Positions 6,619-62,277 are shown, numbered from the stretch's first letter. The stretch: 64,000 bases of DNA from Eledone cirrhosa (GCA_964016885.1 OZ024761.1:25730001-25794000), one strand, 5' to 3'. Numbers and translations: made by a program. The notes: generated from the letters alone by a model not told the origin.

Positions 6619-6809
6619 AACAAAGGAAATGTGGTAAGGAACCAGGTGGACCATAACGCACCAAAGTACTCAATACTTAGCGTAGTAGAGTGGGTAATAG
6701 GAACAAGTAAGACCCCGACGGCTGAGCTCAAGAACTAGCTCAGAATTAGTTCAGAATTAGCCGTCGAAACGGCTTGATCTCAGCCGTCGGGGTCTTACTT
6801 GTTCCTATT
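6619..6809 (-). mobile_element. Foldback 'half-hammerhead' element (family H), copy 1
   Basis: About 80-bp unique arm plus palindrome taggaacaagtaagaccccgacggctgag...ctcagccgtcggggtcttacttgttccta, flanked by (TA)n. Confidence 0.8.
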
Positions 6810-6852
6810 ACATATACATATATATATATATATATATATATATATATATATT

Positions 6853-7022
6853 GTTAAACTTGGGGAAGGTCATATTTGTGTAATATTGCCTAAAATTAAT
6901 AACAGAACACTCACTGTTTGGTTGGTTTTCGCTTCTCGCTTCTGTGTCTTTTATATAAGTAATCTAACTTACTCGGTCCTCAATGTTGCCATTGACTGAC
7001 CGACGGTCAAAAATAATACAGA
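6853..7022 (+). mobile_element. Unclassified ~170-bp TA-embedded interspersed repeat
   Basis: Homologous to the reverse complement of 55020-55176 (gaaggtcatatt...cactgtttggtt...ttcgcttct...cattgactgaccgacggtcaaaaa). Confidence 0.6.
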
Positions 7023-7224
7023 TACAATATAGACACAAACACATATATATATAGTTTATCATAAATCTTTCGTTGTACATCTGCAACATCGCCAGTGGTG
7101 CTATCGTTTCCTCCTGTTATATTGTATGTGTTCGCCATTTTTATTCAGTCTGTCTATATATTTATTTATTTATGTGCTTGTTTGTTTATATATATATATA
7201 TATATATATATATATATATATATA

Positions 7225-8028
7225 TAAGGAATTTATATCTAGTAACATTTATATACACACAGATGCATATCAATACTAGCAAATATATAGGTTTTGTCTT
7301 ATTAACAATGTGGTTCAATGCATGGGGTTGCAGAACAATAATATGAGAGACGTAAAATAAGAAACTTATAAAATTAACTTACTTACTAAAAAATCACTTC
7401 CAACTAATTAGTTTCTGGAATGGAGTAAATATATTTTCCGAAGAAACACATAGAAAATCATTCCGTCATCAGGAAAGTCTTTTTCCGTATAGGTTTCCAG
7501 GCATAGCGAGGACACTGGAAACTTATTAAAAAAATAATTCAGTGGAATGGAAATAGCAAAGCGTGGACTGGATTCCAAGCCATTGAGAAAATCATTGCCT
7601 CCTCGTCTGTGGCAAATTCAAAAAGAATCAATCACGTGACATCGAGGTCAATCAGTGGAAAACGAGTGGTTATTAAGACAGCGGCCAGCCTACTACCATA
7701 GTAGAAGTCATGGCCAAATATTGCTCGACAAATGAATTGGAGATAATTATAAGGAATTTATATCTAGTAACATTTATATACACACAGATGCATATCAATG
7801 CTAGCAAATATATAGGTGTTGTCTTATTAACAATGTGGTTCAATGCATGGGGTTGCAGAACAATAATATGAGAGACGTAAAATAAGAAAATTATAAAATT
7901 AACTTACTTACTAAAACATCACTTCCAACGGAAAATATATTTACTCCATTCCAGAAACTAATTAGTTGGAAGTGATTTTTTAGTAAGTAAGTTAATTTTA
8001 TAATTTTCTTATTTTACGTCTCTCATAT
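7225..8028 (-). mobile_element. Retrozyme / mini-Penelope-like element: 525-bp unit with 180-bp terminal direct repeat and a 100-bp inverted end
   Basis: 7225-7404 is repeated at 7750-7929. 7929-8028 is the reverse complement of 7341-7440. Contains a hammerhead at 7396-7478. (TA)n on both sides. Confidence 0.75.
7396..7478 (-). ncRNA. Type I hammerhead ribozyme
   Basis: acuuuc CUGAUGA c-ggaaug...cauucc-a GAAA CUAAUUAG UU ggaagu: stems I and II pair, stem III is palindromic, triplet GUU. Confidence 0.75.
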
Positions 8029-57808: not shown

Positions 57809-58289
57809 CAGATGATAGATAGATAGATAGATAGATAGATAGACATACAGACAGACAGACAGATGGAGAGTGTGAAAGAGAGAGAGAGACAATGAATGAA
57901 AATAATAGAGATAGTGCGTGTGTGTATATATGTATCTGAAAGTGTGTGTTTATATATATATGTATATATGAAAATGTGTATGTGTATATGTACGTGAAAG
58001 TGTGTGTTTATATATATATATATGTATATATGAAAGAATGTGAATGTGTATATATATGTTTGTGAAAGTGTGTGTTTATATATATGTATATATGAAAGAA
58101 TGTGTATGTGTATATATATATGTATGTGAGAGTGTGTGTGAGTGTGTGTGAGTGTGTGTGAATGTGGTGTGTGAGTGTGCGTGAGTGTGTGTGAGTGTGT
58201 GTGTGCGTGAGTGTGTGTGAGTATGTGTGTATGTGTGTGTGTATGTGTCGGGCAGATCGTCAGATTCATTCATAGATTGATATAGAGAG

Positions 58290-59880
58290 ACTGAAAGAAA
58301 GAAAGAAAGAAAGAAGGAGAGACGGAACAACATTGGGGGAGAGAGGGAGCAACGCGGGGGGAGTGAGGGAGTAACATAGGAGGAGAGAGGGAGCAAACAT
58401 AGGAGGAGAGAGGGAGCAACATAGAGGGGGGGCTGTGTTTTTTGTAATTAAGAAAGATGTTAAGCGTGAGAAAAAAGTGAGAGAGAGATAAATCAGTGTC
58501 ATGCAGACGTGAAATCTATGGTGCGTGAGAGAGAGAGAGAGGGAGAGGGAGGAGGAGAGAGATGGTAGATAGACAGGGATGACGGATAGACAGAGGGGAT
58601 AAAGAAAGAGAGAGAGACATGGAAGGACAGTGAGAGGGAAAGTGGGTAGATGGAGAGAGAAAGAAGAGATCGACATAGAAGGAGAGGGAGAAAGAAAGAG
58701 AGAGAGAGAAAGAAAGAGAGATCGTCAGAGAAAGAGAGAAAGAGATCGACAGAGAAAGAGAGAGAGAAAGAAAGAGAGAACGATAGAGAGAAAGAAAGAG
58801 AGAAAGAATGAGAGAAAGAAAGAAACAACGATAGAGAGAAAGAAAGAAAGAGAGAATGATAGTGAGAGTGGGGAGAGAGATGGCAGTATCGGACATATAT
58901 AGAGACGCATGCACGTAGTGGAATCAAGAGAGAGGGGAGGGAGAGAGAAGGAGGGAGAAGAGAGGAGAGGGGAGGGAGAGAGAAGGAGGGAGAAGAGAGA
59001 GAGGGGAGGGAGAGAGAAGGAGGGAGAAGAGAGGGAGGGAGTGTAGTATTTAGAAGGAGAAAGAGAGAAAAGTAGAAGAGAGATTGGTAGGAGAACCAGG
59101 GGAGAGAGAGAAGGAGAAAGAGAGGGAGAAAGAGAGAGAGAAACAAAAGAGCGAGAAGGAGAACGAAAAAATAGAGAGAGAAGGAGAAAGAGAGTGAGAG
59201 AAGGAGAAAAGGAGAAAGAGTGAAAGGAGAAAAAGGAGACAGAGAGTGAGAGAAGGAGTAAGAGATTGAGAGAAGGAGAAAGAGATTGAGAGAAGGAGAA
59301 AGAGAGAGAGAGAAGAACGAGAGAGAGAGAGAGAGAAAAATAGAATGAGGTGGAGAGAGAGAGGAGGAGAGAGAGAGAAGGTGAAAGAGCAATATATATA
59401 GAGAGAAATAAAGAGAGAGAAGGAGAGAGAAATAAAGAGAGAGAGAAGGAGAGAGAAATAAAGAGAGAGAGAAGGAGAGAGAAATAAAGAGAGAGAGAAG
59501 GAGAGAGAAGGAGGAGAGAGAGAGAGGAGAGAGAAGAAGGAGAGAGAGAAGGAGGAGAGAGAAGAAGGAGAGAGGGGGAAAGAAAGAGAGAAGGATAGAT
59601 GAAGAGAAGGATAGAGAGAGAAGGAGAGAGAGGAGGAGAGAGGGGGAAAGAAAGAGAGAAGGATAGATTAAGAGAAGGATAGAGAGAGAAGGAGAGAAAA
59701 GGAGGAGAGAGGGGGAAAGAAAGAGAGAAGGATAGATGAAGAGAAGGATAGAGAGAGAAGGAGAGAGAAGGAGGAGAGAGGGGGAAAGAAAGAGAGAAGG
59801 ATAGATGAAGAGAAGGATAGATGAAGAGAAGGATAGATGAAGAGAAGGATAGATGAAGAGAAGGATAGGGAGAGAGGGTG
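58290..59880. repeat. Polypurine (GA-rich) low-complexity tract with short tandem units
   Basis: Direct reading. Confidence 0.9.
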
Positions 59881-62069
59881 GGAATAAGAGAGTGGGTGAG
59901 AATCACAGAGAATGTGTTATGGAGATGGAAAGAACGTAAGACATGCATTTAGTTAAATAGAAAGTCATATAGAATTAGTGAGTGAGTGAGAGAGTGGGTG
60001 CTGCAGTGAGTTAGAGAGAGGGTGCCAGAGAGAGAGAGAGTGAGAGGGAAGATGCCAGAGAGAGTGAGAGAGAGGGTGCCAGAGAGAGAGGGGGGGAGGA
60101 GCAAAAAAGAGATTGCTTGAAGTACAGCATGAGAGAGAGAGAGAGGGAGAGAGAGAGAGAGAATAGAAGAGAGAGGAAAGTAGTGTGTGTTAGAGAAAGA
60201 GAGAGAAAAGCAATCACACACAATATACAGCTTTGAGGAACGAGCGTGATCACTACCACGTTGATCACAAACAAACACACAGACGGACGGACGGACACAC
60301 ACACACTTATATATATATATATATATATATTTTATACATATATGTATTATAAATACATATATATATATATACATACACATCCAGATATATAGAAAAAAAT
60401 AAATATATACAGCCATATATATATATATATATATATATATATATATATTCACATATACATATAAATATATGTGAAATAATTAGAAAGAAAGTCTCACGCA
60501 AACACACATACACACAAACGCATACACACCATATATATATATATATACATATATACATATATATAGACACACACATATTTATTGCTAAATTACGCGCTCT
60601 GTTACTGACAGAAGTTTTACACAATACACATCTATCTATCGATACATCTATCTATATCTCGACGTAGAGCGAGATATATATATATATGTATGCATGTATA
60701 TAGGTATATGTATATATGTATATTCGCCTATATATGCTCGCGTTTTGTGAGATTTCTAGGAAGTCGACGAAGAATTTTGGTTACCTCTAGATTTCTGTCA
60801 CGCTTTGTAGGCATAATTACTAGTAGTACTAGAGCTACTAATTCTACTACAAATACTACTACAATTTATAATAATACAAATAGTAATCTTTGGACAAAAG
60901 GAAATGATTTCGCTGCTAGGAAACAACTTTGGATTTTTATGCACAGCGGTATTCGGATTACTAACGACTATTAACGGTAAGGAAATTGCTTAAGCATTTA
61001 ATGCTTCTGTCTATATATGTGTCTCAGTGTAATTTTGCATGTGCATGATTGTATATATGTAGGTGTGTGCGTCTGTGTGTGTGTGCGTGTTGGGTGTGTG
61101 AGTAAGTGTTTAAGGAAGTTCTTTAAGACGCTTATTGTATATATATGCATGGGTGTGTGTGTGAATGCAAACGTTTCTGTTTCGGGTGGGTACGAGCATA
61201 TAGAGGTGTGTGTATATATATATATATATATGTGCAAGCGTTTGTGTATGTCGGGTGTGTATGTATATGCTTAAGTGATTACTATAAGTGTTTGTGTGTG
61301 GGGGGCGGGGGGGGGGGGGTATTTTAGGAACATCCTATGCATGTCCATACATATATGTGTATGTATGATTACATATACACACACATTATATATATATATA
61401 TATGATTACATATACACACACACACTATATATATATATATATGATTACATATATATATATATATATGTGTATATGTATATATGTATGTATATATATGATT
61501 ACATATATAATTATATATATATATATATATCTATATACACACACACCTACATATATATTAAATAAATATATATATATATATATACACACACACATACATA
61601 CATATATATAGCGAGAGGGGGGGGGGGATACTTTTTTCCATCAAATAAAAGAATAAATCGAAGGAAAAAAAACTTTCAAAAGTGCCTATATATATATCGA
61701 TTAATCACTCAGTACACACATACATAATCATACACATTAATATATATGTGTCTCTTTTTCTGCCTGTCTATATGCTTATACCTCTATATGTGTTTGTGTG
61801 TGTAGAGAGAGAGAGAGAGAGAGAGAGAGAGATGTGTGTATAGGTGTGTGTGTATATAATTTAAAAGGCTCTCAACACAATTATCTCATTATTTTCTATT
61901 CATCTATCTGCCGGCTTTTCAAAGTTTCATACCGCACAAAACCTTAGGTTATGAGATAATACAGCTTTAGATGAAACTCGTTCATACACACACGCACATA
62001 CACACACACACACAGACCTTTATATATATATACATATATACATATATATATATATATATATATATATAT

Positions 62070-62277
62070 AACAAAGGAATTGTGGTAAGGAACCAGATGG
62101 ACCATAACACACCAGCGTACTCAATACTTAGGGTAGTAGAGTGGGACATAGGAAAAAAGTATGACCCCGACGGCAGAGCTCAAGCCGTTTCGACGGCTAT
62201 TTCTGGACTGAAATAGCAGTCCAGAAATAGCCGTCGAAACGGCTTGATCTCTGCCGTCGGAGTCATACCTTTTCCTA
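62070..62277 (-). mobile_element. Family H copy 8 (longest palindrome, ~62-bp arms, 6-nt loop)
   Basis: ...cgtttcgacggctatttctggactg-aaatag-cagtccagaaatagccgtcgaaacg...; (TA)n flanks. Confidence 0.85.

Follow-up and report, generated by a model that had tools for sequence, protein, structure and literature searches.

Hammerhead-bearing palindromes in (TA)n tracts of Eledone cirrhosa as probable ends of Penelope-like elements

Penelope-like elements (PLEs) of the Hydra clade carry one open reading frame (ORF) that has an RW[K/R] motif, a DKG motif changed to DKT, a CxCx5C linker, and a C-terminal endonuclease (Craig et al. 2021, PMC8557442). In vitro, the PAc/Poseidon PLE nicks both target strands and extends both, using two internal start sites (Frangieh et al. 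2024, PMC11167929). The U3-A8 hammerhead core is a published variant (PMC4209133), a link between retrozymes and PLEs has already been proposed (PMC7229834; bioRxiv 10.64898/2026.07.22.740005), and the regeneration of the pseudo-long terminal repeat (pseudo-LTR) was called unexplained for Penelope (PMC2377424). What we say of published systems throughout refers to excerpts of these sources. Earlier publications cover Octopus Hydra PLEs, their (TA)n bias, one-tailed inverted copies, minimal hammerheads that stand alone, and retrozymes that travel as passengers of PLEs. Here, we analyze a stretch of 64,000 nucleotides (nt) from Eledone cirrhosa (OZ024761.1:25730001-25794000), the whole of which we call the window, and the hammerhead-bearing palindromic insertions that it contains. 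An earlier note on this window knew of no description of such a family set in cephalopods; the supplement to PMC8557442 already presents a (TA)n-targeting, hammerhead-bearing Hydra element of Octopus bimaculoides.

We interpret the palindromes as PLE ends deposited in (TA)n, derived from four autonomous families and two non-coding passengers through double priming and run-off at the RNA 5' end, and we put the probability of this reading at roughly two in three. Comparison of the window with itself reveals seven repeat families plus solo motifs. The families are H (6620 and seven more), P (14601, 16835, and 25556), Q (55219 and 57683), S (the 50504 pair and 30178), G (49559 and 54934), R (7225), and T, with the letters P and Q assigned by coordinates. 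As the earlier note had observed, they sit in or beside TA tracts: of 46 element ends, 35 have (TA)4+ no more than 12 nt away, as do 16% of background positions. The 30 best H loci all have TA flanks around a center that differs between copies. The described architecture of a long arm plus a shorter inverted arm is likewise present in H, P, Q, S, R, and T.

Four of the seven families (H, P, S, and G) are ends of protein-coding PLEs, and three of these (H, P, and S) are of the Hydra type. Genome-wide counts refer to the 3.0-Gb genome, and counts on listed matches were made by eye on the first 100 in genome order. A 22-base H motif has 36,265 matches genome-wide. An upstream stretch common to two H loci, which holds the upstream ribozyme half, has 3,858 exact matches and leads to locus L085, where an intact ORF of 718 amino acids (aa) stands between two copies of the H end; H positions are numbered with +1 at L085:3849. 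This single ORF combines reverse transcriptase (RT) and GIY-YIG motifs and follows Hydra-1_Obim motif by motif, with RWR, DKT, YRDDG, and CxCx5C (both by eye), and Atlas neighbors carry HTH_animal, GIY-YIG, and RVT_1. The H and P proteins show, by eye, the CxCx5C linker together with CxxC and CxH around a conserved E and N. An ORF with about 40% identity to that of H has the P end both 5' of its start and 3' of its end (L340, L332, L337, and L188), and the S end lies 3' of an ORF about 45% identical to the H ORF (L233/L290); the P and S ORFs were found only in broken form. H, P, and S also have a hammerhead in the pseudo-LTR and insert into (TA)n, as Hydra-clade elements do. The G end directly follows a C-terminal GIY-YIG domain with a cysteine linker (L195 and L193); no whole G ORF was recovered, and Pfam gave no match in two G-type fragments. 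We take G to be a canonical PLE with a C-terminal endonuclease (EN+), of the Nematis or Neptune type.

These parents change the status of the insertions. The earlier note had called the families non-coding, non-autonomous parasites of a PLE reverse transcriptase that primes in (TA)n. The PLE connection stands, with autonomous elements that share these termini found for H, P, S, and G, and the non-coding, parasitic label stands for R and T; H, P, S, and G, however, continue into ORFs elsewhere and are fragments of autonomous elements. H haplotypes comprised 24 upstream-bearing and 21 mini copies, 12 and 20, and 11 and 19, respectively, and every mini haplotype tested also occurs in upstream-bearing (ORF-type) copies. 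One H haplotype was considered as a self-copying mini lineage and rejected because about 24 of the first 100 matches carry upstream sequence. Four H units also stand in tandem with a 3,531-bp period (G000:C1:437200371-437211269). The Q parent was not found: about 300 nt of shared upstream sequence give way to microsatellite, and 20 loci contained no match to the H protein.

The two arms of each insertion carry the evidence for double priming. Every family has one short end and one long end, or tail. We assembled 201 head-to-head pairs, from loci mostly picked by family queries and with a few duplicates possible, in which tandem units blur R and T: 156 join a long to a short end, 18 join ends of the same type (8 of them in tandem units), and 27 are unclassified. 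Among the 156 long/short pairs, the short arm extends further 5' in 71, the long arm does so in 32, and the two are equal (within 5 nt) in 53. Each arm of the 71 carries sequence missing from the other arm, as at 17763, 25556, and 30178 in the window, and the arms share fewer than 12 nt in 22 pairs. For the 48 pairs not chosen by a query with their own family, the corresponding numbers are 24, 6, and 18. The earlier note had proposed that nascent complementary DNA (cDNA) primes itself at template hairpins. Since snap-back needs one arm to be contained in the other and 71 of 156 pairs violate this, it fails as a rule, and the axis appears to follow a fixed RNA 5' end rather than a hairpin. In 30 of 37 H minis and in all 9 large pairs, the haplotypes of the two arms match (random expectation, 0.17), and their identity at diagnostic sites indicates that one RNA usually serves both arms; in L026, the arms come from two different H subfamilies. 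The pairs with sequence unique to each arm fit two priming events.

H, P, Q, S, and R each have a bulged hairpin behind the short end, and H has one behind the long end as well; free folding yields it behind the H long end and the R, S, and Q short ends. Contigs independent of the assembly, of a kind that was not recorded and used only as proof that ends and joints exist outside it, contain the same two H ends and opposite-strand joints at +1, which indicates that these are not assembly errors. Small loops and bases without a template occur at H junctions. Within G000:C1:211998184-213037330, four P junctions are nearly identical and have repeated fold-backs of 12 to 13 nt; they probably represent one duplicated event.

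The arms share a further property, a fixed 5' boundary. About 80 of the first 100 of the 36,265 H matches stop within a few bases of +1, and among unselected H arms, 47 of 75 start between -10 and +9 while 4 of 75 go upstream by over 20 nt. For P, about 70 of the first 100 matches end within a few bases of a boundary 88 nt upstream of the core; for Q, about 90 of the first 100 do so at the stem I edge, and 21 of 61 unselected S arms start at -10 to -1, also at the stem I edge. The H boundary lies in loop II, and an RNA starting there would lack half of the ribozyme; the structural place of the boundary differs between families. The proposed fold axis at stem II thus applies to H and the axis at stem I to Q, but neither P, where only 1 of 17 long/short pairs has its junction in stem II, nor R, whose boundaries are scattered with no single site, follows the stem II rule.

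Promoter-like signals accompany the boundary. A TATA box is present at -29 in two H subfamilies, and Q has one at -30, with the spacing unchanged in 11 of 12 copies, plus two CCAAT boxes, at -80 and -62. The H, S, and P boundaries fall on initiator-like words. On these signals, the fixed boundary is quite probably the start of transcription. The H minis would be left without the upstream TATA box. We considered a cap-templated extra G at the boundary and set it aside, as 21 unselected H arms are too few and are blurred by fold-back junctions. Other hammerhead families are joined straight to H +1 at L044/L054, L034, and L043, where the search pattern selects for such joins.

A second, minor class of H arms starts at the predicted ribozyme cut, which falls after +41. 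Eight of 100 H long arms start at +42 or +43, compared with about 16 over the whole interval from +10 to +41. A purine before +42 is found in 112 matches genome-wide; of the first 100, about 65 are true junctions at +42 (in about 27 of these, both arms end there), 32 are G-run or point variants, which we dropped, and 3 have an A-rich insert at the cut. The same search at a control position, +39, gave 13 matches with 10 true junctions. We found 21 same-sense joins onto +1. In 5 of these, the joined sequence stops at the cut: 3 are short repeats of +1 to +41, and 2 (L354 and L363) continue through the whole ribozyme into the 3' untranslated region. The latter two join +1, through untemplated bases that are A-rich in one case, to a 3' end at the cut. 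End-to-end jumps exist but are rare. The excess of arms at +42 and the joins at the cut hint indirectly that the H ribozyme may cleave at the predicted bond. A-rich untemplated stretches exactly at this position occur at G000:C2:263516504, C3:114392272, and C6:67985753, and about 28 of 100 matches have one extra G there. Cutting followed by tailing and re-ligation could have left such extra bases, as could slippage.

The double-priming reading would then run as follows. An enzyme of the element would nick both DNA strands at (TA)n, and two cDNAs would be primed at two fixed internal sites of one RNA, a step with in vitro support from another PLE; the bulged hairpins behind each end may set these sites. 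The cDNAs would run off the RNA 5' end, likely the transcription start and sometimes the predicted ribozyme cut, and be joined head to head. H minis, devoid of a TATA box, would be inert by-products, the source of long tandem copies would be read-through or circular RNA in which +1 is no end, R may borrow a Hydra enzyme, and cleavage would presumably take place in vivo. A combined scheme goes further, and we hold it only tentatively, as possible but doubtful. With the H promoter in hammerhead loop II, the RNA would be unable to cut its own 5' end, and the downstream copy would cut and leave a 41-nt terminal repeat. The minis would be integrated strong-stop DNAs of a telomerase-related enzyme, and cut RNA, either jumped onto or circularized, would rebuild the pseudo-LTR and the tandems.

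Several observations weigh against the double-priming reading. Same-haplotype arms and the 53 equal pairs are also compatible with snap-back, and a later lop-sided loss of the palindrome center could mimic unequal arms. No freely folding hairpin lies behind the P and R long ends, and the H short end yields one only when folded alone. Pfam has no match in the H ORF. Some cores are non-canonical: U4 is changed to A in S, Q, S, and R have a mismatch at the base of stem II, and one H subfamily has a C3-A8 mismatch. P, S, and the oldest H subfamily have no TATA box at -30. PAc copies uncut RNA, with no reads at the cut (PMC11167929), whereas here a minor class starts at the predicted cut. The cut class exceeds the control about 7-fold, with a single control position, a G run after the cut that may favor joins, and 32 of 100 matches dropped as variants. 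Finally, none of 30 copies that hold the ORF start, the query itself included, begins at +1; 26 continue upstream and 4 start downstream. This result led us to reject the simple model in which every passage of +1 is a chance jump. It also implies that long copies are not usually templated by a full-length RNA whose +1 end is free. Such copies more likely derive from read-through or circular RNA, and the minis from linear RNA with a free start.

We weighed four other explanations. If the insertions were independent non-autonomous mini-elements, a single cDNA would snap back at a ribozyme-stem or transfer RNA (tRNA) template hairpin and be self-copied into the short arm. The arm starts within 5 nt of each other in 53 of 156 pairs, the mostly identical arms, the loops and untemplated bases at H junctions, and the non-coding nature of R and T all agree with this. 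The 71 pairs with sequence unique to each arm and the 22 that barely overlap contradict it as a general rule, as does the distance of 88 nt between the P boundary and the ribozyme, and mini-element independence is at odds with ORF-linked parents for four families and ORF-type upstream copies of each H mini haplotype tested; we consider it improbable. Palindrome centers are unstable, and uneven later loss of the center from self-primed palindromes might imitate two primed arms. Such palindromes, attributed to antisense RNA, have been read as self-priming in print when head to head (PMC3846280). The loss, however, would have to be one-sided, as the short arm keeps the boundary to a few bases and the long arm has no set stopping point (in 10 of 12 selected P pairs, and in 24 versus 6 among unselected pairs), and it does not account for arms from two subfamilies at L026. 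We accordingly give this history little likelihood.

Double priming may be right and the boundary still be an RT stall or an RNA processing site, such as a splice acceptor in H loop II, instead of a transcription start. A pyrimidine-rich stretch before the H boundary does resemble a splice acceptor, long copies pass +1 without stopping, and the TATA box is missing in the families named above. We regard this as unlikely nonetheless, with no common exon joined upstream of the boundary, a different structural place for it in each family, and TATA and CCAAT boxes at textbook spacing in Q. The short, palindromic, TA-flanked, and very abundant insertions also recall miniature inverted-repeat transposable elements (MITEs) or other TA-targeting derivatives of DNA transposons. 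Yet the two outer ends are different sequences rather than identical terminal inverted repeats, the center varies by copy, and the parents encode an RT and an endonuclease, which refutes a MITE origin and makes any such derivation extremely improbable.

The hammerheads themselves were sought with a relaxed type I descriptor, tuned after the families had been seen. It detects 6 motifs in the window, compared with 0.2 ± 0.4 (maximum, 2) in 200 shuffles used as the control, and 4 motifs in 100 kb of unselected flank. Five further motifs (25654, 56430, 49559, 57801, and 50997) are one-mismatch members of the same families, which brings the total to about 11, close to the 10 or so reported earlier and denser than in shuffled sequence. 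Rfam returned no hammerhead family among the first 150 of 683 matches, which are dominated by microsatellite. H, which had been listed as a hammerhead bearer, contributes no whole ribozyme, as all 8 window copies are without the 5' half. A search for a canonical core upstream of the H boundary yielded only 21 chance joins and was abandoned; the true upstream half has a U3-A8 core, with U3 (C3 in one subfamily), U4, G5, A6, A8, and A9 fixed and all four bases accepted at position 7. The P core is canonical and the S core a variant. In P-like motifs, stems I and II vary yet remain paired (by eye); the H subfamilies are too similar for such a comparison.

R and T are non-coding tandem units. R has a 525-bp period, a longest ATG-initiated ORF of 53 aa, and a predicted type I hammerhead fold; being non-coding, tandem, and equipped with such a hammerhead, it fits the animal non-LTR retrozymes (PMC7229834). 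It differs from them in its length (a range of 150 to 450 bp is stated), its PLE-type inverted insertion, and its Hydra-type hairpin. No R parent was found, and no protein-based search was made for one. The T unit of 272 bp has no ORF and contains a tRNA match of 47.7 bits. The sense strand of T, for which the earlier note had put the fold axis on a tRNA hairpin, has no hammerhead core, and T is unlike retrozymes in this and in its tRNA part; a hammerhead in scrambled order was considered and dropped, as there is no core. Its tRNA part recalls a tRNA-derived short interspersed element (SINE), but the unit forms a closed tandem loop whose ends are of the PLE type. Among the 100 T matches listed, those that run past the tail return to T or end, with no partner sequence and no parent. 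Some T arms start at the tRNA 5' end, with a TATA-like word at -32. One locus (L198, G000:C4:61009630-61012411) holds an array of about 10 T units of 272 bp, in which a T5 run directly follows the tRNA-like part and should stop RNA polymerase III.

Compared with the Hydra clade, including Hydra-1_Obim, the H, P, and S elements agree in ORF motifs, end hammerhead, (TA)n targets, and an inverted 5'-truncated copy with a one-sided tail (PMC8557442). They are nevertheless separate families, about 40 to 45% identical to each other, with tails of 80 to 115 nt instead of the 30 to 40 of published Hydra PLEs, and the H ribozyme further stands apart by its U3-A8 core and by a boundary placed within a long loop II. 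Insertions of ends alone that share a fixed 5' boundary, of which there are tens of thousands here, are not described for the Hydra clade in the excerpt of PMC8557442. In the supplement to the same paper, the coral Hydra element that precedes Hydra-1_Obim ends, by eye, in the same bulged hairpin as H and Q. The likeness to PAc lies in the use of both strands, in two internal starts that define the tail, and in uncut RNA as the main template (PMC11167929), an account that in its excerpt draws no link to inverted insertions. Minimal PLE hammerheads have in common with ours the solo motifs from truncated PLEs, the opposite-strand pairs, the U3-A8 core, an unpaired base where stem II starts, and a palindromic loop III; a promoter inside the ribozyme and fixed boundaries are absent from the excerpted account (Cervera and de la Pena 2014, PMC4209133). 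The Drosophila virilis Penelope has its promoter and RNA start in the pseudo-LTR, as we propose for H, and likewise forms partial tandems, but its promoter is internal and TATA-less (Schostak et al. 2008, PMC2377424), while in H and Q the TATA box lies upstream and is missing from copies that consist of the end alone.

New here are a boundary that is fixed in four families, along with promoter spacing, a cut class set against a control, the two jump products, and the absence of +1 starts among the 30 ORF-start copies. A literature search, which left subscription papers largely outside, found no link of twin priming or strong-stop products to PLEs and no account, for PLEs, of double priming, of end-only insertions bounded by a promoter, or of a tandem passenger that bears a tRNA. 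In LINE-1 twin priming, the second target strand primes inside the same RNA, and the inverted arm need not overlap the first. In contrast, the sites here are fixed, internal, and family specific, and a long and a short end meet head to head. Inverted ends, pseudo-LTR regeneration, and the use of the hammerhead are stated as open questions in the excerpts of published PLE work, and double priming gives a way to test how the ends of these relatives of telomerase are built. As a young family whose ORF is intact and whose motif has over 36,000 matches, H yields base-exact predictions (RNA start at +1, cut at +41/+42, and priming sites at +61 and +140), which can be tested with one protein and one RNA. 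As a warning, many "MITE-like" or "retrozyme-like" palindromes in TA-rich animal genomes may be by-products of autonomous PLEs.

Table 1. Coordinates and character of the insertions and hammerhead motifs in the window
Feature	Coordinates	Strand	Description
H mini-insertion	6620..6811	-	Long arm and inverted short arm; Hydra-type PLE end; 3' half of hammerhead only
H mini-insertion	17763..17903	+	Arms scarcely overlap (short arm, reference 1-42; long arm, 38-134)
H mini-insertion	17953..18142	+	Long arm starts at +2
H mini-insertion, older subfamily	34871..35066	-	Long arm starts at +1
H mini-insertion	41122..41282	-	Short arm decayed
H mini-insertion	48832..49014	+	Short arm reaches +1; long arm ends at +23
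H mini-insertion, diverged	50285..50482	+	
H mini-insertion	62071..62278	-	Both arms reach +1
P insertion	14601..15023	.	Short-end arm with whole hammerhead (core 14697, minus) ends at fixed boundary; separate long-end arm
P insertion	16835..17087	-	Junction inside stem II, an exception within P
P insertion	25556..25833	.	Short-end arm with hammerhead (core 25654, minus) and tail-only long arm; about 11 nt in common
P-like hammerhead, diverged	56380..56470	-	Core 56430
R (7225)	7227..8024	-	525-bp non-coding tandem unit, 1.3 copies; hammerhead core 7472; inverted short arm; retrozyme-like
T insertion	26750..27140	+	272-bp non-coding tandem unit; tRNA-like part 26927-26997; axis at tRNA 5' end
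Second T insertion	40447..40714	-	Axis within tRNA-like part
Q insertion	55219..55419	+	Both arms begin at 5' edge of stem I; core mutated
Q long arm	57683..57808	-	Hammerhead core 57801
S short-end arm	50497..50572	+	Variant hammerhead (U4 to A); third Hydra-type PLE end
Second S arm	50923..50997	-	
S insertion	30180..30288	.	Tail-only long arm and short arm, without overlap
G	49488..49720	+	End of PLE with C-terminal GIY-YIG; hammerhead core 49559
G hammerhead alone	54931..54977	+	Core 54934
Solo P-like hammerhead	51739..51797	+	Good fold; no adjoining (TA)4
Solo hammerhead	40850..40925	-	Core 40910; good fold; no adjoining (TA)4

The window contains further repeats. Another TA-flanked family with a hammerhead-like core lies at 48550-48705, where its GAAA is damaged, and is also found at L188 after the P end. 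An open frame of 1045 aa at 43220-46357 (+) has PF14529, PF03372, and PF00078 domains (endonuclease and RT) and belongs to an apparently intact long interspersed element, which sits between two long TA-rich arrays. A SINE-like repeat of 188 bp has at least 15 copies in the window, often in short tandems (1571-1758, 12070-12257, 13558-13748, 15637-15824, 21788-22383, 25165-25330, 54002-54545, 55796-55934, and more). Lastly, a pair of 240-bp repeats at 207-446 and 35647-35888 is 88% alike, with one copy flanked by TA.

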